A stretch of 62,618 nt of DNA, filler included, from Ionaspis alba (lineage: Eukaryota): the NCBI GenBank assembly GCA_964255285.1. It is 3 parts of 3 records of this genome, joined end to end, with 100 filler letters (N's around TTAATTAATTAA, not from the genome) between each part and the next. Parts side by side here need not be neighbours in the genome. Positions count along the whole stretch, not along the records: positions 41,831 to 62,618 come from CAXUUL010000239.1; 2 more parts are not named here. One strand, written 5' to 3'. The position numbers and the translations under genes were made by a program. Position 1 is the first letter of the stretch; every line of letters begins with the position of its first letter. The notes beneath the pieces are model-generated. The model ran no database searches. It was not told where the DNA came from and saw only the letters and a list, made by a program, of their open reading frames with translations. Below, piece by piece: positions 41,731 to 54,805 of the stretch.

Positions 41731-41830
41731 NNNNNNNNNNNNNNNNNNNNNNNNNNNNNNNNNNNNNNNNNNNNTTAATTAATTAANNNNNNNNNNNNNN
41801 NNNNNNNNNNNNNNNNNNNNNNNNNNNNNN
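41731..41830. other. Assembly gap with artificial linker TTAATTAATTAA (41775-41786)
   Basis: Same design as 20817-20916; SPG1 and SSL1 both run into it. Confidence 0.95.
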
Positions 41831-43350
41831 CTTGCATCCCCATCCCTCCTCTCTCCCTCCCTACTTAGACACCCCGGACAATTATGCACAACCTCATGAC
41901 AAAAAACATCGCAATCGATGCAAAAGAACCGTCCACAACTCCCACAAGCATACCTACCACTCTCACTCACTCCGCCCTCCCTCTTCCCCCTCTCCCCATA
42001 CACCATCGCCGCTCTCCTCTCCGCCAGAACCTCCTTACTCGGAATACCCGGAAACGGCGTCAAGCATCCAAAACAGGCAGGCTGCGCACTCTGCTCAGCA
42101 GCTGCCCTTTTCCAAGAAACCTCCCCCCAATTGCTCAGCGGAAAAAGGTGATGATACGACCTCGCCAGATGCGTCGACAGGATAAGCGTGAGTCCGCAGG
42201 CCGGACAGGTGCTAGGAAGCGCGCAGACTTTGCTGTTACACCGACTACACAAATACCCACCCCTCGTCGGCTTAGAATGGCAAGCGCAGAAACTCTCCGT
42301 CTCCTCCACAATCCGCGACGGAAACCCCATCATCAGCAAACTGCTCTTGCTGCTATCAGCCGCTTCAGACTCAGCGGGCTTGGCGGTGACGGGTGGCGTG
42401 GTCGCTTTCATGAAGAGGTCGCGGTAGTGCTGCTCGTTGAGAGCGACGCCGTAGGCCTCGTCGGGGGTGCTGGCGGGATTGGTGCGCGTGACGAGTGTGC
42501 GGCAGATGGCGACTTGGGCAGCGAGGCCGATGACGCTGCAGGTTATGTGCGAGGCTGTGAGGGCTGTTATGGTTGTGTGGATGTCCCCTGGGTCGGAGGA
42601 GAGGAGGGAGCCGAAAATTAAGAGGACTTCTCGTGTGCCGTGCGAGGGAGCGTGGCTATAGGATTGGTTAATTATGGGGAAAAGAGGGTTGAATGGGGTG
42701 GCAAGGGGCGCTGACTAGAGGGCTGCCCGAGCCATTTCCAAAGCGTTTTGCAGACTAGGATTCCCTTTTGGCTCTTGCTCTCGTAGGGCTTGGAGACTGC
42801 CGACATGGTCGTTGGGGTTGCCGCTCATGTCGCTGATGCGCACGGCGAGGCCATCTCGCATGCCGATGATGCCCAATTGGGAAATGGGGTTTTGCTCAAA
42901 GTACTCGTTCACAAATTCCTGTGCATAGCGTAGAGTAAGGAGATACCGCGTGGGCCGTAAATCTTTCTCCAGCATAGCCGTGGAGAGGTCAAGCACGAGA
43001 ACCAGATGGCGGATAATGCCGCGCTGTAGAGGTGTTGTATCTTTCAGCAACCTGGGCCTCATCAGCTGCTTCCTCAACTCCTCAGGATCCTCGCTGGGAA
43101 TCATCTTGCACGTCCCTACTCACCTCTTCCTCTTGCCGGCTTCTAATAGTCCTTCAACCGTAGAACTGATTGTCCCGTCTGCACCTTCCACCACGTTTTC
43201 CCACGTCCTTGTGACTTCCCATTCTCCAGCCGTGCCTCTAGCGCCATCACCTGTGGCTCTGCTTCCATGCTTTGCTCCTCGTGTCACCTGATGAGCACCA
43301 ATTTCCTCTTCTGAGTTTTCTTGGATGTAGTCATCGTCGGAGTCAGGCAT
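41831..43350 (-). CDS. SSL1: TFIIH subunit p44/Ssl1 (vWA + zinc fingers); 3' end at gap
   Basis: WEVTRTWE, LQRGIIRHLVLVLDLS, EYFEQNPISQLG, LLMMGFPSR, CPACGLTLILSTHLARSYHHLFPL, CIDCDVFCHEVVHNCPGC. Confidence 0.96.
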
Positions 43351-44649: not shown

Positions 44650-45898
44650 TCACGTGTAGGTCCCTCCTGGTGTGGGCATCGGCCAGTCGTCTTCCGTTAT
44701 ACTCGACCAGAAGATCCACACCATGACCACAGATAGCAGAGTGAAGAGCGTCTCGAAGAGAGCACCGTTGATCTTGCCGTTTGTGGCATTGCAGAGGTGT
44801 GGGCTGACGATGTATTGGAAGATTTGACCGACTGCAAACAGTACCGCGGCACCGAGCAGATATACTAAGATTCTGGTAAGCAAATTTGAACTTGAAATCT
44901 TACGTGAGAGTACGAACACATGGGTTTCTTCTCGCCCAGAACGCGAAGGACGAGAATAGTTTCCAGGATGAAAAAAAGCGCTAGGAAGATCAATGGCACC
45001 AATTGGTAGAGAACGTATAGGCCAATATTTCGGTTCGGATCCTTTAAGCTATCATCGAAGTGGCCGGTCCAACGCAGAGCAGTATCAAGCGTAATATATC
45101 CGGTTCCAATGAAAAGCGCGATGGCAGATATCAATATAGCTCCCAGTGAAAGTGGGGTTCCGTCGTCCAGCAATTGATAGCCAACAATGCCGTTGAGTAG
45201 CAATACCCAGAGCGTAGCGACTATAGCTCCGAGATGCACAGCGGTGAAGCCCTGAAGTTGATACGTTAGGTTCGCAATGAGGTGGATTATGTCGGGATGT
45301 TCATACAATTCTGACATTGGATGCGAGCGGGAATCCTCCAACTGTGAAAATTTCGCAGATTTCGACGATTATGTATCCAATCAGGAAGAGTTGGAGCTCT
45401 CTGTGATGATGTGAGTCTTTGGTCTTGCGCAGCCTCTCCGGCAGACCAACCTTCTGCCTACGGCTGCCTTTTTCCTTTCCGACCTCAAGAGCAGTAATAT
45501 GGTGACCACGATAGCGATACCACAGAGCAGTATGCTCCCTATTTCGATCAGCATGGTTCAGCACATCTCCAGCTATGTCGCTTGCATACCCAGGTTTCTA
45601 AGATATCCATTGCTCAACGGTATCCCCTTGAGCTCACAGCCACCGAAGCCAGGTCCGTCTCTGTTGGGGGAATCACTGAAGATCTACCGGAACGTGTATC
45701 AGTAAATTGTGCAAATTATTGACAGCGCGAACCGTGGAGTCAAGCGATTGCTCAGACCCATGTGACGTACATTGCAGACGGGGAGAGTGGAATCCCGACA
45801 GAAGTTCTAGAAAGCAGCGATGATCAGTATCTCTTTCTTCCGGTCGTCTGGTAGCACACCGAGCATACGTGGAAATTCCCAAACTGTGTAGTCCCCAT
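44650..45898 (-). CDS. Chs7-family chitin synthase export chaperone-like 7-TM protein, multi-exon
   Basis: MGTTQFGNFH|..CRDSTLPVCN, KAAVGRR|ELQLFL, ICEIFTVGGFPL, GYQLLDDGT, FWSSITEDDWP. Confidence 0.88.
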
Positions 45899-47877
45899 CG
45901 CGACCAAATAGCAAATCGGGCAGATCCCCGCCCACGACGTCTTGCCTCCTTCTACGATGCGGCTGTGACTTCAAGAGTTGTGCCTCTTGCTTCTTGGGGA
46001 ATCGGAGACGCAATTCGAAAGGTCAATTGAATGCGCGCCGTCTTGCGCTTTGCGAAAAAAAGAAATGAAGGTCGAAGTGGTCAAGTTGGTCAAGTTGTTC
46101 GCCGCCGCCAGAAACGATGGATGGGGGCAAGCAAGGAAATGGATTAAAATAGGTGCTGAGGTGACGTGAAAGTTGCTAGTGAGACGTGGAACAAGCGAGG
46201 ATCGACAGAACTTGCGAGTCGGCTGTGCTACGGTAGCAATTGATGAGCCTTGTCGGATCGCCCTTCACTCCTCGAGGAATTGTGAGTGAATCTGGATGGA
46301 CAGAATGCTGTCGGTGAGAGGTGGTCGACGACGAAGAAGAAGAAGAAGAGTAGATGAAGGAGAGTAGTATAGAAGTAAGGCAGCAGATGGAAGGACGAGA
46401 CGGGCATTGGATTGGCGCCATCGAACGGCGGGAGATTGCATGATTATTTGCTTTGGACAGGGGAGTCCTGCCTTGGGTGTTCTAGTTGCCCTAGCTGCCC
46501 GTCCCCGGGGGTGCTTCCATGTTGCTAAGAATGAAATAGCGCCCAGTTCTGGAGGCTGCTACTAGCCACAAGTCTCCGCATCCACATCCACATCCACACC
46601 ACACACTCTTCTCCGTGTGGCTCTAAAGAAGGAACGACCAGGGGAAGGAACACTATTGTTTCTCTGAGAGCCGTCGTCCCGTCAAGGTCTAACATTTTGC
46701 TGCTTGTTAAGGTTTTCCAAAGGCACATCATGGAGTTACTGAAGGATCAATGGACGGACGTTTGACTCCAAATACGCCCCCATGTTTCATACTGCTTCAT
46801 TGCGTGGCATGGCATGCATAAACTGGGTCGACGAATCAGATGCTTCAACAGCTTCCCTTGCTTCCTGGATAGCTTCGAGTCATTTCCAACCACCAGAACC
46901 CACTTTGCTACTCTGTCACCGCAGAGGAGACCCAGGCCTTTTTCTTCCACTAGTAGTGTGGGACGGTGAAGGATGCTATATTTCTGCTTGATATCCACTC
47001 CTTCCATAGTACCATGTTCTTCAACCGACTCATACCAGTCAATGCCAACGACAATTCCACATGACAAGACCGAGATAGGAGAATCTCTACTCCTCAATCC
47101 TTCTTTTGTTGCCAAAAGACAATTCATGAACCACCTAAACTCTGATACTCCATGACTTTTACAGCGACTTCACTCATTGGATGCAGGATCAGGTAGGGTA
47201 GGACAGATTCAGGCACAGTTGTAGAGGACGGCAATGCCGAGACGGCGTATACTAAAAGATCTACTTCGCCCTGCAGCATTTTTGTGTCTATACACGTGGT
47301 GGTGACTGCAATAGTGAGGTTCCGCGCCATTTTCCTCTGCCATCGTGCGCTGCGTTGTATACTAAAAAAGGACAGCGTAGGCTTAATGGCACAGTTTTAC
47401 GGCAAATAAAGTTATGCATCTTATGCAAATTCTGTTGAGCCATTAATCCAAGTTCAGGGTCTTCGGCGACACGGCGCCGGATCGCCGGAGGCAGCCAGCG
47501 CAGCCGCTACTGCGCCAGGCAAAGCCAACTATTCGTCCGTTCCTTTGTAGAAAGTTAGTCAACTGGGTCTCGTGCATCCTGATCACCGTCTCCGATACAG
47601 CGACGAGAAAAAACAAATCAGCCTGTCCACTCACTTGCCTTACTACTCCTTCCTGGCACCTGCGTCTGTCTCGATGCGTGATCCATTAACTACCTGATCG
47701 CCCCACATTCAACCACCGTCTTTCCTCCCGCGCGTTCCCCTTTTGGTGCTGATTCCATTCCAGTCGGACGTTACACAGTCCTATCCTTTCAACGCACACA
47801 GATTTCTCTGCGAATTTTTCCTGAAGGGGCTGCGACGGGTCAGCCCAGTTACCACCGGCACTATTCCTTCCTCAAAG

Positions 47878-50226
47878 CTGTCACGGTCTGCCAATATCCC
47901 CCTCCGCAACCTCATTCCTGCCTCCCGGCTGTCCGAGGACCATTCGACAGCGCTGCTGGAGTCGACCACCGTAAACGAAAAGGACGGCTCCCGGCATTCC
48001 CTCGACTCGGCCGACTCGGACTTCTCCTTTTTCAGCGACACTGGTGATCTAGCGGAGCAGCTCGCCGCTGAGGAGGATCCCTTGCACATTCAGATCCGAG
48101 AGTCTTTCGACGAAGCATCGGGGTCCCATGCGAGGGGGGGACGGCAACACAAGAGGAGTGTTCGGTATATTCAACAGGATCACCTACAACGGAAGAATAC
48201 CAATCCGGGGATTGATAAAGAGGCAATCGAAATACCTGAGCCTCAGCCGAGATATATCAGCCGAGCCGAGAAGGTTGTTGCTGTCATCATGACGGGGAAT
48301 AGGGAGGCGAGCCAGATGCATGGCTTGACGGGCAAAGCTCTATTGTATGTATTCGGAAACGGCATGGCCTAGAAGGCAACAACTAATGTTTCACAGATAT
48401 TTCACGAGCGTTTTTGTTTCGCTTGGGGTTTTCCTTTTTGGGTATGATCAAGGAGTCATGTCAGGAATCATAACGTTAGTTGGTACAAGCTTGAAGCTGC
48501 CTCGACCATAAGCTGAATCGTGAAACTCAGAGGTCCATACTTCAAGGACTATTTCAACCAGCCCAGTAAAGCGGAGATCGGTACGATGGTTGCTATCTTA
48601 GAAATCGGTGCCTTTATATCATCCTTGTCAGTTGGAAGGATAGGAGACATGATCGGCCGGCGGCGAACCATCTTATACGGATCGATCATATTTTTTATCG
48701 GAGGAGCCCTCCAGACCTTTGCAACCGGCATGCCTATGATGCTTTTGGGACGAATTACTGCTGGTCTTGGTGTGGGTGCTCTATCAACCATCGTTCCGAT
48801 CTACCAGTCCGAGATATCGCCTCCACACAACCGGGGAAAGCTTGCGTGCATCGAGTTTACGGGAAATGTCAGCGGATATGCTGCCAGCGTGTGGGTCGAT
48901 TACTTCTGTAGCTACATTATGAATGACTATGCCTGGCGGGTGCCTTTAGCATTGCAATGCTTTATGGGAGCTCTGCTCGGTATCGGTAGTCTGATTATTT
49001 GCGAATCTCCGAGGTAGGCTGTTTGACCTCCGTCTCACAATATGCTGGCTAATGATCGAATTTGCAGATGGCTGCTGGACAATGACCACGACGAAGAGGG
49101 TATTGTAGTTATCGCCAACCTCTACGGCGGCGGTGACATCCACAACGACAAGGCCAGACAGGAGTACCGCGAGATCAAGATGAACGTCTTGCTGCAAAGG
49201 CAGGAAGGAGAAAGGTCTTATACTGACATGTTCAAAAAGTACTATAAGCGTGTATTCATCGCCATGTCGGCACAAGCACTTGCACAACTCAACGGCATCA
49301 ACGTTATCTCGTACTACGCGCCCCTGGTCTTCGAGTCTGCTGGCTGGATCGGTCGAAAGGCAATCCTTATGACAGGCATAAACGGTATCACATACCTGCT
49401 AGCAACGATTCCACCTTGGTACCTTGTCGACCGCTGGGGACGTCGGATCATCCTTCTTTCTGGAGCTGTGGCCATGATTATTTCTCTTTCGCTCATCTCA
49501 TATTTCTTGTTTATTGACATTCACAATACCCCAACACTCGTGGTCATCTTTGTCATGATATACAATGCATCCTTTGGAGCTTCATGGGGTCCGATCCCTT
49601 GGCTCTACCCTCCAGAAATCTTGCCTCTTAGTATACGAGCGAAGGGGGCAAGTCTCAGCACAGCAACGAATTGGGCTTTCAATTGGCTAGTCGGCGAAGT
49701 TACACCTGTACTTCAGGAATGGATAAAGTGGCGTTTATACCTTGTACATGCTTTCTTCTGCGCTGTCAGTTTCGTTCTTGGTACGGAACCAGTTGTCCCC
49801 TTCAGGCATGTTACCTTTTCGCTAATGTGTGCAGTATATTTCATTTATCCGGAGACCGCAAACCTCCGGCTAGAGGATATGGATCAACTTTTTGGTGACG
49901 CTACCACTGCCATGCCGACACCTGCTCAACATGCCGAAGTCGAATCTCTCATGAGCGCCAGCAGATCTCCTGTACCTTCGCTCGATATCCGGAGAGGAGC
50001 CCCAGGTAACTTTACTGCTGACAATGCCATTCCGGGACTAGACATCAACCCACCAAACGATGTCGAGAACGGAAAGCCTCGGCTACCCGATGGTAATGAG
50101 AACGTACCCCGCAACGAAGGCATAGGAGGCTGGATCTCGAGAATGGTGAAGCGGAGTAAGAGCAATGACAAGAGCGGAAGTGGTGAAGCTGGAGCATATA
50201 GACGGTTGGATCAGAACGACGAGTGA
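47878..50226 (+). CDS. MFS sugar porter (monosaccharide transporter); first AUG at 48289, proposed CUG start at 47878
   Basis: SLGVFLFGYDQGVMSG, GDMIGRRRT, VPIYQSEISPPHNRG, ESPRWL, AQLNGINVISYY, SWGPIPWLYPPEILP, YPET. Confidence 0.9.
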
Positions 50227-50908
50227 ACGACCAAGTGCATGGCTATGTACATTAATCCATGGTTTGGAAGACACCTTTGGAGTGCCGCTGAGCCCAATGC
50301 ACCTGGCTTCATGATATAGGGACCTAGATGGCGTTTGATGAGCGAGTGTTGATTCCCAGCTGCGAAGCATTTATGTAGCAGGCCTTGTATCTAACTTGTT
50401 CGAATGCACAAACCACACGTGTCACAGCATCATTGCTTAAGAGCATTGGCACAGTCACTATTCATTGGTTCTCGTGCAACACAATCTTGACCGTAATCAC
50501 GAAAGTAAAATTGAGCCGGAGGCTGACGCCGCACCAGCCCCTGAATCCAGAAGAGCATCCTTGCTCCTCGCTTATTTTTACGTCTTGGCGGTGGAGAGGA
50601 AACGTCGATCTCAGCTTCTGCGGCTCCCTATCAACTCCGACTCCGTCTTGACAGCGTAGTGAGGTTCTCGCTGTTATCTGATGTGGGAAGAGGAGTCTGA
50701 ATCAATTCCATGACTTGAGTATCGTCACGACTATTACTTTCTTGTAATTCATCATTTCTTGTCACTCTTTACTGCCTAGGAAGCTTAACAGCTCGCGTCA
50801 GTCCTGGTGTATTACCCCTTGATTGACTTCGACTTTACGGTTTGCTCGACTACTTTTCAGCGAATCCTACCTTATGATATAAGTTGTTCTTCCGATATTG
50901 ACGACAAT

Positions 50909-53397
50909 ATGGCGACAAACACGAGTAGCTTTGCTACCGGAGCAACATCAGGGGAACAGGATCTGCGGAGGAGAAACGTCCCCTCTCACCACGGCAGCAA
51001 TGGCAGCATCGCCCGCACACCCGATAGTGTTGATGAGGAGAAAACTCGAAGGGTACGTTCTCTGTGATTAGAAGTCTGCCTTTCTCGTCAGCTAATATTA
51101 TTTCCTCCTCCAGCAACCTCAACAATCTCCCCTCTCCACCCTCGACGAATGGGAATTTCTTATCGCGCCCTTAGTCTTCACCTTCCTCGCATTCTTCACC
51201 CGAACATGGAGGATAGGCCTCTCAAACATAGTGACATGGGATGAAGCTCAGTATGTCTCTCATCTCCCCTATCTCTAACAGGCGCGCATCTCCGTCCCCT
51301 AAACATCGGCTAACCTTACCACTCACTACTCTATCAGCTTCGGCAAATTCGGCTCCCACTACCTCAAACGCGAATTCTACTTCGACGTGCACCCACCCCT
51401 CGGAAAAATGCTTGTTGGTCTCTCCGGCTACCTCGCCGGCTACAATGGCTCCTTTGAATTCAAGTCCGGCGAAAAATACCCCGAGGATGTCAACTACACT
51501 TTCATGCGGCTCTTCAACGCGACGTTCGGCGCTCTCTGCGTACCGCTGGCATACTACACGGCGCGAGAGCTGAACTTTCGTCGGCCGACGGTCTGGCTTG
51601 TGACCATGATGGTGCTGTTTGAGAACTCCTATGCTACGATTTCGAGGTTTATTTTGCTGGATTCGATGTTGCTGTTTTTTACGTTCACGACGGTGCTTTG
51701 TTGGGCGAGGTTTCATCGGTTGCAGAAGGAGAGCTTTGAGCCGGAATGGTTCCTTTGGTTGTTTTTGAGTGGGATCAGTATTGGGTGTGTTTGTAGTGTC
51801 AAATGGGTGGGCATGTTTGGAACTGCTCTTGTCGGCCTCTATACGATTGAGGACCTGTGGAATAAGTTCGGGGATTTGGAGATGCCTGTGGTCAGTATCC
51901 TCTTTGGGAGCTGGAGCCTTTTGCTAAACGCCAACAGATCACATATGCTCAGCATCTTGCTGCCAGGGTTGTGGGTTTGATAATCGTTCCGATGATGGTC
52001 TACATGTTCTCCTTCTATATCCACTTCCTTGTCCTTGAGAATAGCGGCCCCGGAGATGCTCAGATGAGCTCCCTTTTCCAGGCAAACCTCAGAGGCACCA
52101 ATGTTGGGAAAGACAGCCCTCTTGAGATCGCCTATGGTTCTCGAGCGACTCTGAAGAACATGGGCTATGGAGGCGGTCTCCTCCATTCCCACGTTCAGAC
52201 GTATCCCGAAGGTTCTGGACAGCAACAAGTGACTTGCTACCACCACAAGGACGCCAACAACGACTGGTTCTTCTACCCCAACCGCAACGAACCGGACTTT
52301 GACCCAGAAGCGCCAATCAAGTATGTGGCCGATAAGGATGTTGTCCGCTTCATCCACTCCCAGACTGGCCGCAACCTACATTCCCATCAAGTGTCAGCAC
52401 CAGTCACTAAGGCAGACAACGAAGTTTCGAGTTATGGTAACACTACCGTTGGCGACGACAAAGATCACTGGACAGTAGAAGTGGTCAGAGATGCTGCTTC
52501 ATCTGACAGATCTAAGATCAGGACTCTGACGACCGCCTTTCGGCTGAAGCACACTGCTCTCGGCTGCTATTTACGTGCTGGAAACGTCAACCTCCCACAA
52601 TGGGGTTTTAAACAGATTGAAGTGACTTGCGCTAAGGAGAACAAGCCTCGAGATGTCTACACCCATTGGAACGTCGAGTCTCACTGGAATGAAAAACGTG
52701 AGTCATTTTCCTAAATATCTAATAAATATGCTTACATTCTATAGTTCCGGCCGGTGACCCCGGCTCCTACAAATCGCCTTTCCTCCGCGACTTCATCCAC
52801 CTCAACGTCGCCATGATGACCTCCAACAACGCACTCGTTCCCGACCCGGACAAACAAGACGACCTCGCCTCCCAGTTCTGGCAATGGCCCATTCTGAACG
52901 TCGGATTACGCATGTGTGGTTGGGACGACAGTATCGTCAAGTACTTCCTGCTCGGCAACCCAGCCGTCTACTGGGGCAGCACGGCCAGCTTAGGCATCTT
53001 CGGCATCGTCGTGTTCTGGTATCTCATTCGTTGGCAGCGCGGCTACGATGAGCTGAAGCAGTGGGAGATTGATCATATCCACTACTCGGGCTTGTATCCT
53101 GTGCTTGGATGGTTCTTGCATTATCTGCCTTTTGTGGCTATGGCGAGAGTCACTTACGTCCATCACTACTATCCGGCCCTGTATTTCGCTATCTTGACTA
53201 TGGGGTTCGTGGTTGATTGGTTTACGAGACCGCTGGCGAGAAAGGATAGGAGAATTGAGTGGGCGGTTTATTTCGCGTTGTATGCGTTGGTCACGGGAAT
53301 GTTTATCTTGTTCCGTGCGATTGTGTTTGGGATGGTGGGGGATAATAAGCAGTGGAGGTATTTGAAGTGGTTTGATCGATGGAGGATTACGGATTAG
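50909..53397 (+). CDS. PMT2: Dolichyl-phosphate-mannose-protein O-mannosyltransferase, PMT2 subfamily
   Basis: [43 protein letters not shown] domains ([25 protein letters not shown]), [12 protein letters not shown]. Confidence 0.95.
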
Positions 53398-53835
53398 ATG
53401 CGTACGGTGTTGGGTTCATAGGGTTTGGTGGAGGATCCTGTGTGAGCATGGTAGGAGAGGAAACGGATGCTGGAAGGTTCGTGTAGAATTAGGATTGAGA
53501 TGAAAAGTGGGGTTCGTGAAATATCTTGAGAATCGTCCTGGGGTATGCATGTTGACATTGAGATCAGTATTTTTGTCAAACTTGAGTCTGATAAGGACTT
53601 TATACATTTATAGTTCTCCTTTTGTGGTGGTACAACCTTGTGTTACTTCCTGCCCCTAGATACCGAACAGCCTGCGCGATTGACCATGGTCCTAGTCAAC
53701 TCCAACCGAATGCTTCCAAGAGGCTAAAACGCTGCACAGGAATGCATCTCGCGGCGCCTTCCCCGAACATATATTACACTTCAGAACACCAGACAACCCT
53801 CCTCAGCGCCACTCCTACCATCCTCATCCTCTCCA

Positions 53836-54805
53836 TCAACAACACCCACCGCCACTCCCCTTTCCCATCCCCCCAACTTCATTCATACCCAGTACCACGG
53901 CCCCTCTCCCTGGCCCTCCACCCCCTTCTCTTCTGGTACCAGCTCCAGGCCCCTTGACACCACTCCGCCGATCATTCAAATCATATCTCCCCGCCTCAAT
54001 ATTCTGATAAATCCTCTCCGCCACCTCCAAGAAGGCTCTCTCGACTCCCTCCCCGCTCTTCGCAGACGTCTCCACATACTGCATGACCCCATTCCGTTTA
54101 CACCACTCTGTCGCCTCCTCTTTCGTCACCGCGCGCCTGTTAGGTGTGTCGCGGCCACTGCCTATTGGTCCGCTGTTCACTTCCCCATTCTCTTCGTTGC
54201 CATCGGTTGAGGGAGCAGGGTTGGATACGAGGCTGTCGTGTGCCAGGTCGGATTTGTTGCCAACGAGTATGACCACGATCCCTTCTTCTGCTATCTGCCG
54301 CAAATCTTCGAGCCAAGATGTCACGGAATCAAAGGTTGGGCGACGAGAGATGTCGAAAACGAGAAGCGCACCCGAGGCGCCCCGGAAATAGGATCGCGTT
54401 ATGGATTTGTAGGTTTCCTGGCCGGCGGTATCCCAAAGGGAGAGCTTCATTCTTTTTTGGCGGTCTGGTTGTGGAGAATTTGCTAAGGCGTTTTTGGGAG
54501 ACTTGGATGGGGTAGTTTGGGTAGAGGAGGGCGTGCGTTTGGGAGACGAGTGCGGATTGTTGATATTGAGGGCGAGGGAGGCGGGAGGGCCGACAGGGAC
54601 AATGCGGGAGCCGAATTCGACGCCAATTGTTACATCGTGGTGCGGGGAGAAGCGGCCTTCGCAGAGGCGGATCGTGAGCTGCAGGCGGAGGTTTGTTAGT
54701 TGGCAATGAGAGGAGATGATGAACGAATGAGCTTACGCTAGATTTACCAGTGCCACTGTCGCCGATGCAGACAAGCTTTGCGATGTAGTCCCATGGTTGC
54801 GACAT
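53836..54805 (-). CDS. Rab GTPase, Rab2/Rab4-like, with loop insertions and C-terminal CC prenylation motif
   Basis: WDYIAKLVCIGDSGTGKSS|LTIRL, TIGVEFG, WDTAGQETYKSITRSYFRGA, GNKSDL, ETSAK, GGCC*. Confidence 0.93.

Follow-up and report, generated by a model that had tools for sequence, protein, structure and literature searches.

N-terminal extensions translated from near-cognate codons are known from Neurospora cpc-1 and its homologues in Pezizomycotina (Ivanov et al. 2017, PMC5487733). In PTEN-beta, initiation at an AUU is helped by a downstream hairpin that starts 14-18 nt beyond the codon and stalls the scanning complex, according to the accessible part of a review (PMC5666671). On the 5' side of a start codon, refolding of a hairpin close to the exit channel can shift the 43S complex, as the accessible part of a preprint on reconstituted yeast scanning with start-proximal 5' hairpins describes; engineered hairpins 6 nt from the AUG led to backward motion and lower 60S joining, with a slight effect at 46 nt (Wang et al., bioRxiv 10.1101/2021.12.08.471614).

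Here, we describe a sugar porter gene of Ionaspis alba (assembly GCA_964255285.1) for which the reading we favor is one mRNA with two starts, an AUU for a long form and an AUG for a short form (probability roughly 0.85). The gene lies in a window of 62,618 nucleotides, the whole stretch of DNA analyzed, to which all positions refer. As far as the accessible parts of these sources go, the locus resembles cpc-1 in its long in-frame leader, free of AUG and shared across Pezizomycotina, in the conservation of near-cognate codons, in having upstream uORFs, and, on this reading, in a short form from the first AUG. In cpc-1, however, the near-cognate codons are several and two uORFs are conserved, whereas the sugar porter, a membrane transporter, has one invariant AUU, uORFs conserved only in sub-lineages, and a covarying hairpin on the 5' side of its start. 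The conserved AUU in strong context, the conserved hairpin, and the long and short isoforms recall PTEN-beta, but here the hairpin ends 11-16 nt upstream of the AUU. That spacing, together with the natural stem and the near-cognate start, also sets the locus apart from the engineered yeast cases. The features discussed below are as follows.

47863..50226, plus strand: sugar porter gene (PF00083), long form of 715 aa, an open spliced frame
47863-48344, 48397-48474, 48531-49013, 49068-49780, and 49835-50226, plus strand: sugar porter exons, with GT-AG introns of 52-56 nt
47674..47697, plus strand: uORF of 7 codons (MRDPLTT), whose stop is the in-frame TGA upstream of the open extension frame
47827..47846, plus strand: conserved, non-coding candidate RNA hairpin, 6-bp stem and 8-nt loop, with compensatory changes in homologues
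47847..47862, plus strand: C/A-rich spacer of 16 nt with the start context (-4 C, -3 A; 71/71)
47863..47865, plus strand: ATT, probable near-cognate start codon for the long isoform, invariant in homologues
47863..48288, plus strand: N-terminal extension of 142 codons, predicted cytosolic, Ser/acid-rich, from homologues and dN/dS
47878..47880, plus strand: CTG proposed earlier as the start, lacking conservation and no more than a minor start in I. alba
47941..47958, plus strand: dileucine-like motif [HQ]SxxLL, with LL in 33/46
48025..48084, plus strand: most conserved extension block, S-[WF]-[ST]-D-T-G-D-[LI]-[AG]-[ED]-Q ... DP, following a Ser/acidic tract
48128..48292, plus strand: frame of 54 codons from an out-of-frame ATG in poor context, not conserved, its TGA stop overlapping the main ATG
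48289..48291, plus strand: ATG, probable start of the short 573-aa isoform, with ATG in the aligned column in 67/71

By family, the gene is a sugar porter with putative sugar transport activity: Sugar_tr (PF00083) exceeds its cut-off in the transporter core (E values of 1e-35 and 8e-48), the nearest solved relatives of the core are plant STP10/STP6 and XylE, and orthologues include A. nidulans AN5104, AFUA_1G07700, and FGSG_06004. As a sequence check, a single contig from run X1, perhaps the source, covers the stretch unbroken, with 0 differences; a contig piece from run X2 of the same study matches 47778-48006, again with 0 differences. Neither contig, whether DNA or RNA, has joints. A search of the incomplete I. 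alba genome for a close paralogue returned a next match of only 39%.

The sequence-only reading had described a transporter frame with an AUG-less N-terminal extension, and recomputation agrees: an in-frame TGA (47695-47697) is followed by 197 open codons, the first in-frame ATG is at 48289, between the two lies a single ATG (48128, cccATGc), in a different frame and a poor context, and a 7-codon uORF begins at ATG 47674. CTG 47878, the start then proposed, indeed has the context tcctcaaag-CTG, with A at -3, 137 codons ahead of ATG 48289. At the local base composition, a 197-codon open frame has a chance probability of about 1e-3, and the 591 nt of the leader frame region contain 1 ATG where about 7 are expected. 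Because the absence of in-frame ATGs is by itself a weak signal (p about 0.09), the case rests on homologues.

These homologues, 65 of them at E<=1e-3, support a real, conserved, and coding extension. Its dN/dS of 0.18 (16 disjoint close pairs) indicates purifying selection, bears out the earlier proposal of a protein-like stretch conserved in Pezizomycotina, and places coding conservation upstream of 48289; the predicted codon-level conservation therefore stood, with its edge at ATT 47863 rather than at CTG 47878. The AUG-free frame ahead of the first AUG spans 124-180 codons in 69/71 sequences, and 2 contigs end early. The tail is Ser/acid-rich, as had been proposed, and its cytosolic location is a prediction; a search of the extension for a hydrophobic segment found none, as did a search for a Pfam family.

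Two short motifs within the tail were compared with known signals. Acidic dileucine sorting signals have the consensus [DE]xxxL[LI], a form ruled out here by the presence of D/E four residues before LL in only 1 of 46 sequences; H/Q occupies that position in 27, and D/E is found at -5 in 15. In an FFAT motif, position 2 is aromatic (F/Y), position 4 is D/E or phospho-Ser, position 5 is a small residue, and an acidic tract precedes these (accessible part of PMC7705450). Among 116 distinct database proteins, chosen independently of the DNA pattern (11 further proteins gave no match), the most conserved block has G and its following D in all 116, the FFAT-like D at position 4 in 115 and T at position 5 in 113, behind a Ser/acid tract; at position 2, W predominates (112, with F in 3). 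The block resembles an FFAT motif in part, with putative binding to the MSP domain of VAP/Scs2, and the tail may alter the sorting or regulation of the transporter.

The putative start codon of the extension is invariant. ATT is present in 105/105 anchored sequences (71 distinct, I. alba included) and in 46/46 representatives below 80% identity, compared with 69/295 for other Ile codons of the extensions, and its context is equally constrained (-4 C in 71/71, -3 A in 71/71, +5 C in 68/71). The anchor was picked as an Ile ahead of a small set of residues, and three loci were moved by hand 12 nt upstream (L009, from ATC to ATT, L068, and L078), so that the "Ile" is partly given by construction; this does not apply to the choice of codon or to the bases at -4 and -3. 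Before counting, 6/110 loci were excluded: 4 that begin too near the site, L067 as unrelated, and L098, which is without the anchor Ile and carries an in-frame ATG instead. Among 16 disjoint close pairs, third positions account for 35% of substitutions within the 60 nt preceding ATT and for 61% within the 60 nt that follow, and frame-breaking indels number 17/22 before and 0/6 after. Judged from these patterns, the coding signature switches on at ATT 47863, and selection acts on the extension from there on; in the 4 codons directly after ATT, dN/dS is 0.77, from few sites. An in-frame stop lies within 15 codons upstream of ATT in 26/64 sequences, the nearest at 3 codons, and an in-frame ATG upstream in 1/71 (L076). 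Non-AUG initiation of the extension is thus supported, and ribosomes very probably initiate at AUU 47863. AUU being a weak start, its invariance suggests that selection acts on the low or regulated output itself.

This codon lies 15 nt upstream of CTG 47878 and adds 142 rather than 137 residues. That the long form begins at the CUG would fit the A at -3 of this in-frame codon and the standing of CUG as generally the most efficient near-cognate codon (accessible part of PMC5666671), but constraint begins 5 codons earlier, at the invariant ATT, a CTG falls within codons +3 to +8 after ATT in just 3/71 sequences, with a purine at -3 in I. alba alone (1/71), and the column aligned with CTG 47878 is mostly Ser/Pro. 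The CUG is a highly improbable start for the long form, and may be a minor one in I. alba.

Sharing of initiation among several near-cognate codons, here the AUU, the Ile codon of an IPLR motif, and the CUG, would parallel cpc-1, which employs at least four such codons (accessible part of PMC5487733). The IPLR Ile has a purine at -3 in 56/57 and could be another near-cognate start, but its codons (ATC 29, ATA 18, ATT 10) are distributed like those of ordinary Ile, and a clade of five loci (L005, L012, L017, L020, and L022) lacks IPLR yet keeps ATT, making shared initiation improbable.

Many database proteins carry the extension behind an ATG, as would be expected if an unannotated upstream exon provided the start, and in I. 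alba a branch-like GCTGAT at 47748 precedes YAG at 47761 and 47776. However, while 59/120 database models start at the downstream Met, the remaining ones reach an ATG via unrelated N-termini of 5-450 residues. A conserved CAG considered as the splice acceptor was rejected, its spacing varying through all three frames and a branch site being absent before it, and the ATG-started frames listed for 47200-47700 contain none of the four upstream donor-like sites (46314, 46375, 47314, 47345). The cDNA-like locus L025 has none of the introns of its sister L018, and its colinear leader of 362 nt includes the hairpin and ATT; an in-frame TAA precedes ATT by 3 codons. The combination argues against an upstream ATG exon, although L025 may instead represent an intron-loss genome, since L007, L045, and L061 lack single introns. 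The extension region is also present in cDNA-like L032. Splicing would, moreover, leave an invariant ATT with start context unexplained, and a spliced upstream ATG exon is highly improbable.

The downstream ATG is in a strong context, with a purine at -3 in 67/69 sequences, and the Ile codon ahead of its Met is ATC in 60/63, against 155/295 for other Ile codons of the extension. Between the two starts, out-of-frame ATGs number 19 against 132 in codon-shuffled controls, and those with a purine at -3 number 1 against 65. Together, the strong context and the purge of out-of-frame ATGs suggest that leaky scanning probably yields 715- and 573-residue forms, the pair of isoforms proposed from the sequence, and it is likely that both are made. 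Alternatively, AUU could be the sole functional start, with only the long form mattering and Met 48289 an internal conserved residue. Strong purifying selection on the extension, the location of this Met in a conserved hydrophobic stretch ahead of the first helix, and the AUG that starts the extension in L098, and perhaps in two Colletotrichum proteins (P0278, P0291), fit that view, but the ATC preference before the Met, the purine at -3, and the purge extending up to this ATG count against it, and we consider it unlikely.

Upstream of the AUU, the stem of the hairpin is 6-7 bp across homologues (about -12 kcal/mol), and its arms covary. In the alignment, 89.4% of cells are paired with 27 double changes, a level that 0/500 shuffles equal (the shuffles take no account of relatedness) and that slid controls, at 31-54%, do not approach. 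Folding z is below 0 in 43/45 sequences (mean -1.58) and about 0 in three neighboring windows, and the predicted probability of the hairpin exceeds 0.5 in 29/45 (free) or 37/45 (5' part only); from the gapped alignment, RNAalifold retained only 4 pairs. Where the arm was found, the spacer to ATT is 11-16 nt in 42/46 representatives, varying mod 3. Within the window, a covariance-model search gave no other site under E 0.03, and it found no element in L098; the exact hairpin and ATT pattern matches only this place in the I. alba genome, and Rfam gave no match at gathering score in 47300-48400, where one chance match (E 5) fell elsewhere. CTG codons in the 5' arm were ruled out as starts, occurring as they do in all three frames. 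A downstream-hairpin-enhanced start was likewise ruled out, the 45 sequences having no folding signal 3' of the AUU (mean z of +0.23 at +7..+48 and +0.03 at +49..+90).

Formation of the hairpin in vivo is probable. The inverted repeat might instead act in DNA, as a transcription-factor or core-promoter site, or in RNA, as a protein-binding site irrelevant to AUU choice, given that sequence and pairing are both conserved in its stem core and that in I. alba a longer fold beats it in a 180-nt context (hairpin probability 0). Against this doubtful reading stand the tolerance of G-U pairs and full swaps (L064 has the arms swapped), the spacing to ATT held within 11-16 nt, and the position of the element about 330 nt inside the cDNA-like L025 leader.

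Under the two-start reading, 43S complexes would scan past the short uORFs and the small hairpin to AUU 47863 in its invariant strong context, where a fraction would initiate and produce the 715-aa sugar porter with its 142-aa cytosolic tail; the remainder would scan about 430 AUG-purged nt to ATG 48289 and produce the 573-aa form, which would retain the whole membrane domain. With AUU in the P site, the hairpin could refold beside the 40S exit channel and so tune AUU use. It may raise such use; some other role is nearly as probable, and lowering is the least probable of the three. More speculatively, the hairpin would be a dedicated 5'-side start-site element that sets AUU use, and thus the short:long ratio, with the tail as a sorting or ER-contact (FFAT-like) signal. 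If so, the downstream-hairpin enhancer would have a natural counterpart upstream, kept in at least four fungal classes. At about 40 nt, the upstream hairpin is a compact natural test case for how RNA structure behind the ribosome bears on start-codon choice.

Further upstream, the start of the MRDP uORF is shared by 5/6 hand-picked homologous loci, 133-189 nt ahead of ATT. A family-wide conserved uORF was rejected: an ATG occurs within 260 nt in 27/33, but the lengths and peptides differ.

The gene model of a transporter common in Pezizomycotina, annotated inconsistently as truncated at the downstream AUG or with an invented first exon, is corrected by this reading. Wei et al. reportedly described in 2013 (said to be JBC 288:9549) Neurospora genes with conserved near-cognate extensions, and NCU01813, a "high affinity glucose transporter" that may be the Neurospora orthologue, is said to be among the examples. 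It is rather likely that the extension is already in print, and the finding is already known if that work describes both the AUU and the hairpin. A search of literature that was largely open-access turned up no account of the extension or the hairpin of this gene; NCU01813 or the accession appeared in tables only, and NCU01813 was absent from the supplement of PMC7049704. The N. crassa orthologue XP_956491.3/Q7RXF1 is named "high affinity glucose transporter" and annotated from the downstream Met; the bare name fits both NCU01813 and NCU08152 (PMC4015282 Table S1), and XP_956491.3 may correspond to NCU01813. The N. crassa and A. nidulans orthologues are testable via existing extracts, reporters, and ribosome-profiling data, and an N. 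crassa data set exists (GSE97717; accessible part of PMC5487733). In this family, STL1, STP1, and high-affinity glucose transporter are database names assigned by transfer. N. crassa models other than XP_956491.3 have K-I-P-P at the corresponding place.

The sequence-only reading described a sugar transporter with an ATG-less N-terminal extension, and all the elements it listed were found in the window at their coordinates. The product is indeed a sugar porter (PF00083), encoded by a gene with four short GT-AG introns that ends at 50226; translation from ATG 48289 yields 573 aa, with the first membrane helix 18 residues after the start. The 197-codon open frame ahead of this ATG has a chance probability of ~1e-3 here and is depleted of ATG in all frames (1 observed vs ~7 expected). 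The key site is identical in sequence in two assemblies from the same study. The analysis covered positions 41831-62618, the one part of the window that maps to contig C239. The relevant features are as follows:

41779-42714, - strand: neighbouring housekeeping gene, Ssl1/TFIIH subunit
44650-45700, - strand: neighbouring housekeeping gene, Chs7 export chaperone, divergent
47827-47846, + strand: GC-rich inverted repeat upstream of ATT 47863, common to homologues
50900-53400, + strand: neighbouring housekeeping gene, PMT/MIR protein mannosyltransferase
53836-54732, - strand: neighbouring housekeeping gene, Ras-family GTPase

Homologous loci (n = 110) were collected from metagenomes with a degenerate pattern built on the conserved block (48025..48084, S-[WF]-[ST]-D-T-G-D...), which is fixed by construction in this set, so that its conservation was taken from the protein set. 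Anchoring on a conserved Ile gave 105 sequences including the window, 71 of them distinct, after six were left out (four truncated, one unrelated, and L098, which lacks this Ile) and the anchors of three were shifted 12 nt upstream by hand. The anchored codon is ATT in 105/105 sequences and in 46/46 representatives below 80% identity, compared to 69/295 for the remaining Ile codons in these extensions. It is preceded by C at -4 and A at -3 in all 71 distinct sequences and followed by C at +5 in 68. No codon periodicity is seen in the 60 nt 5' of ATT across 16 disjoint close pairs (35% of changes at third positions), and 17 of 22 indels there break the frame, whereas the 60 nt 3' of it are periodic (61%) and none of their 6 indels breaks it; in homologous loci, the nearest in-frame stops lie 3 codons 5' of ATT. 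Only in the window does the CTG previously proposed as the start (47878) lie in purine context. The extension stands as a real feature, with its probable start moved to AUU 47863, to which we assign a probability of roughly 0.85 from comparative sequence data. The ATT is kept in a clade that lost the IPLR motif (L005, L012, L017, L019, L020, L022, L037, L064, and L090). L098, without the conserved ATT and without the hairpin, has an in-frame ATG ~66 codons before the conserved block, so that it is possibly either a paralogue or a case in which AUG initiation has naturally replaced AUU. Two Colletotrichum proteins (P0278 and P0291; protein only) have annotated N-termini starting MPIRP near the Ile-Pro of their relatives, possibly an AUU-to-AUG change or a spurious exon.

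The alignments indicate that the extension is coding and old. Coding constraint was borne out by dN/dS of 0.18 (the same 16 pairs) along with the third-position periodicity after ATT. Among 985 candidates, 65 carry homologues of the 155 residues counted from CTG; from the listed genera, we take these to be Lecanoromycetes, Eurotiomycetes, Leotiomycetes, and Sordariomycetes. In a tree of exon-1 sequences, the window falls together with Xylographa and Lambiella (support 100/97). The downstream Met is the annotated start in 59 of 120 database proteins; long models reach an ATG via mutually unrelated N-termini, and their shared similarity starts at x-[K/T/I/N]-I-P, 5 residues ahead of the Leu at the suggested CUG. 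In some Penicillium and Aspergillus models, the gene is merged with a neighbouring mitochondrial carrier, and several orthologues are misnamed "Ribulose bisphosphate carboxylase large chain."

A spliced upstream exon supplying an ATG had been named as the alternative, and none was found in L025, which lacks the introns of its sister L018 (extensions 89% identical) and has a colinear, intronless leader of 362 nt with TAA 3 codons before ATT. Another homologue, L032, is intronless across 596 codons. Both look like cDNA, although intron loss is known in the family; judging from these two homologues, an upstream exon appears to be absent.

The inverted repeat occurs in all three frames and is therefore non-coding. 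In an alignment of 55 of the 71 sequences (near-duplicates removed by hand), pairing reaches 89.4% over its 7 pairs and 27 double changes occur, exceeding 500/500 shuffles and all slid controls, which leave relatedness in; RNAalifold retained 4 of the 7. Single-sequence folding gave z < 0 in 43/45 (mean -1.58; neighbouring windows ~0), with a median energy of about -12 kcal/mol. A covariance model found one strong site in the window and recovered 11 further family loci with the site, most of which are closely related to the training sequences. In the 42/46 representatives where the 3' arm was found, 11-16 nt separate its end from ATT. No match was obtained among the Rfam families compared with the region, and no earlier description of a covarying 5' hairpin at such narrow spacing turned up in the literature searched. 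Several members of the IPLR-less clade have remodelled hairpins, in which the arms are swapped or an internal mismatch occurs. Two observations speak against the hairpin. In the 180-nt context of the window, a longer fold beats it in silico, the predicted stem of that fold (~47743-47847) pairing the hairpin arms with upstream sequence; this longer stem may be artefactual or may represent an alternative structure. In addition, L003 lacks the hairpin stem.

When AUU occupies the P site, ~12 nt of upstream sequence sit inside the 40S channel, which would place refolding of the stem just outside the exit. Kept there, the stem could act as a backstop prolonging dwell on AUU, our best guess although a tentative one. 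In a yeast single-molecule study, a hairpin 6 nt before AUG drove the complex backwards, whereas one 46 nt away had little effect (10.1101/2021.12.08.471614). Alternatively, the stem could bind a factor or, less probably than acting as a backstop, damp initiation.

Two forms of the protein are probably made. The downstream Met is ATG in 67/71 sequences, preceded by ATC in 60 and with a purine at -3 in 67/69. Between both starts, out-of-frame ATGs number 19 vs 132 expected when 45 extensions are shuffled synonymously, and those in purine context 1 vs 65; in 31 loci, the 100 nt leading up to ATT likewise contain almost no ATG (1 vs 78 CAT). Such depletion, along with a strong downstream context, would be expected where scanning complexes have to arrive at each of the two starts. 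The use of alternative N-termini through leaky scanning, with AUU starts in strong context among the cases, has been documented in Cryptococcus and is predicted for Neurospora (PMC7049704). A uORF starting MRDP (47674-47697) is kept in L009, L010, L013, L021, and L035, which group near lichen fungi, 133-189 nt before AUU, and could modulate AUU vs AUG use through reinitiation.

The N. crassa orthologue (XP_956491.3/Q7RXF1, "high affinity glucose transporter") is annotated from the downstream Met. Wei et al. 2013 reportedly listed a gene of that name, NCU01813, as an example of a conserved near-cognate extension. NCU08152 fits the name as well (PMC4015282). The extension belongs to a recognised kind and may well be an already known case; among the systems compared, the closest is cpc-1 (PMC5487733).

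The tail has no membrane segment and retains the IPLR motif. Its [HQ]SxxLL motif is off the spacing of a canonical acidic dileucine, and a Ser/acidic tract together with the S-W-[ST]-D-T-G-D behind it is FFAT-like apart from W at position 2. The tail may plausibly act in sorting or in organelle contact.
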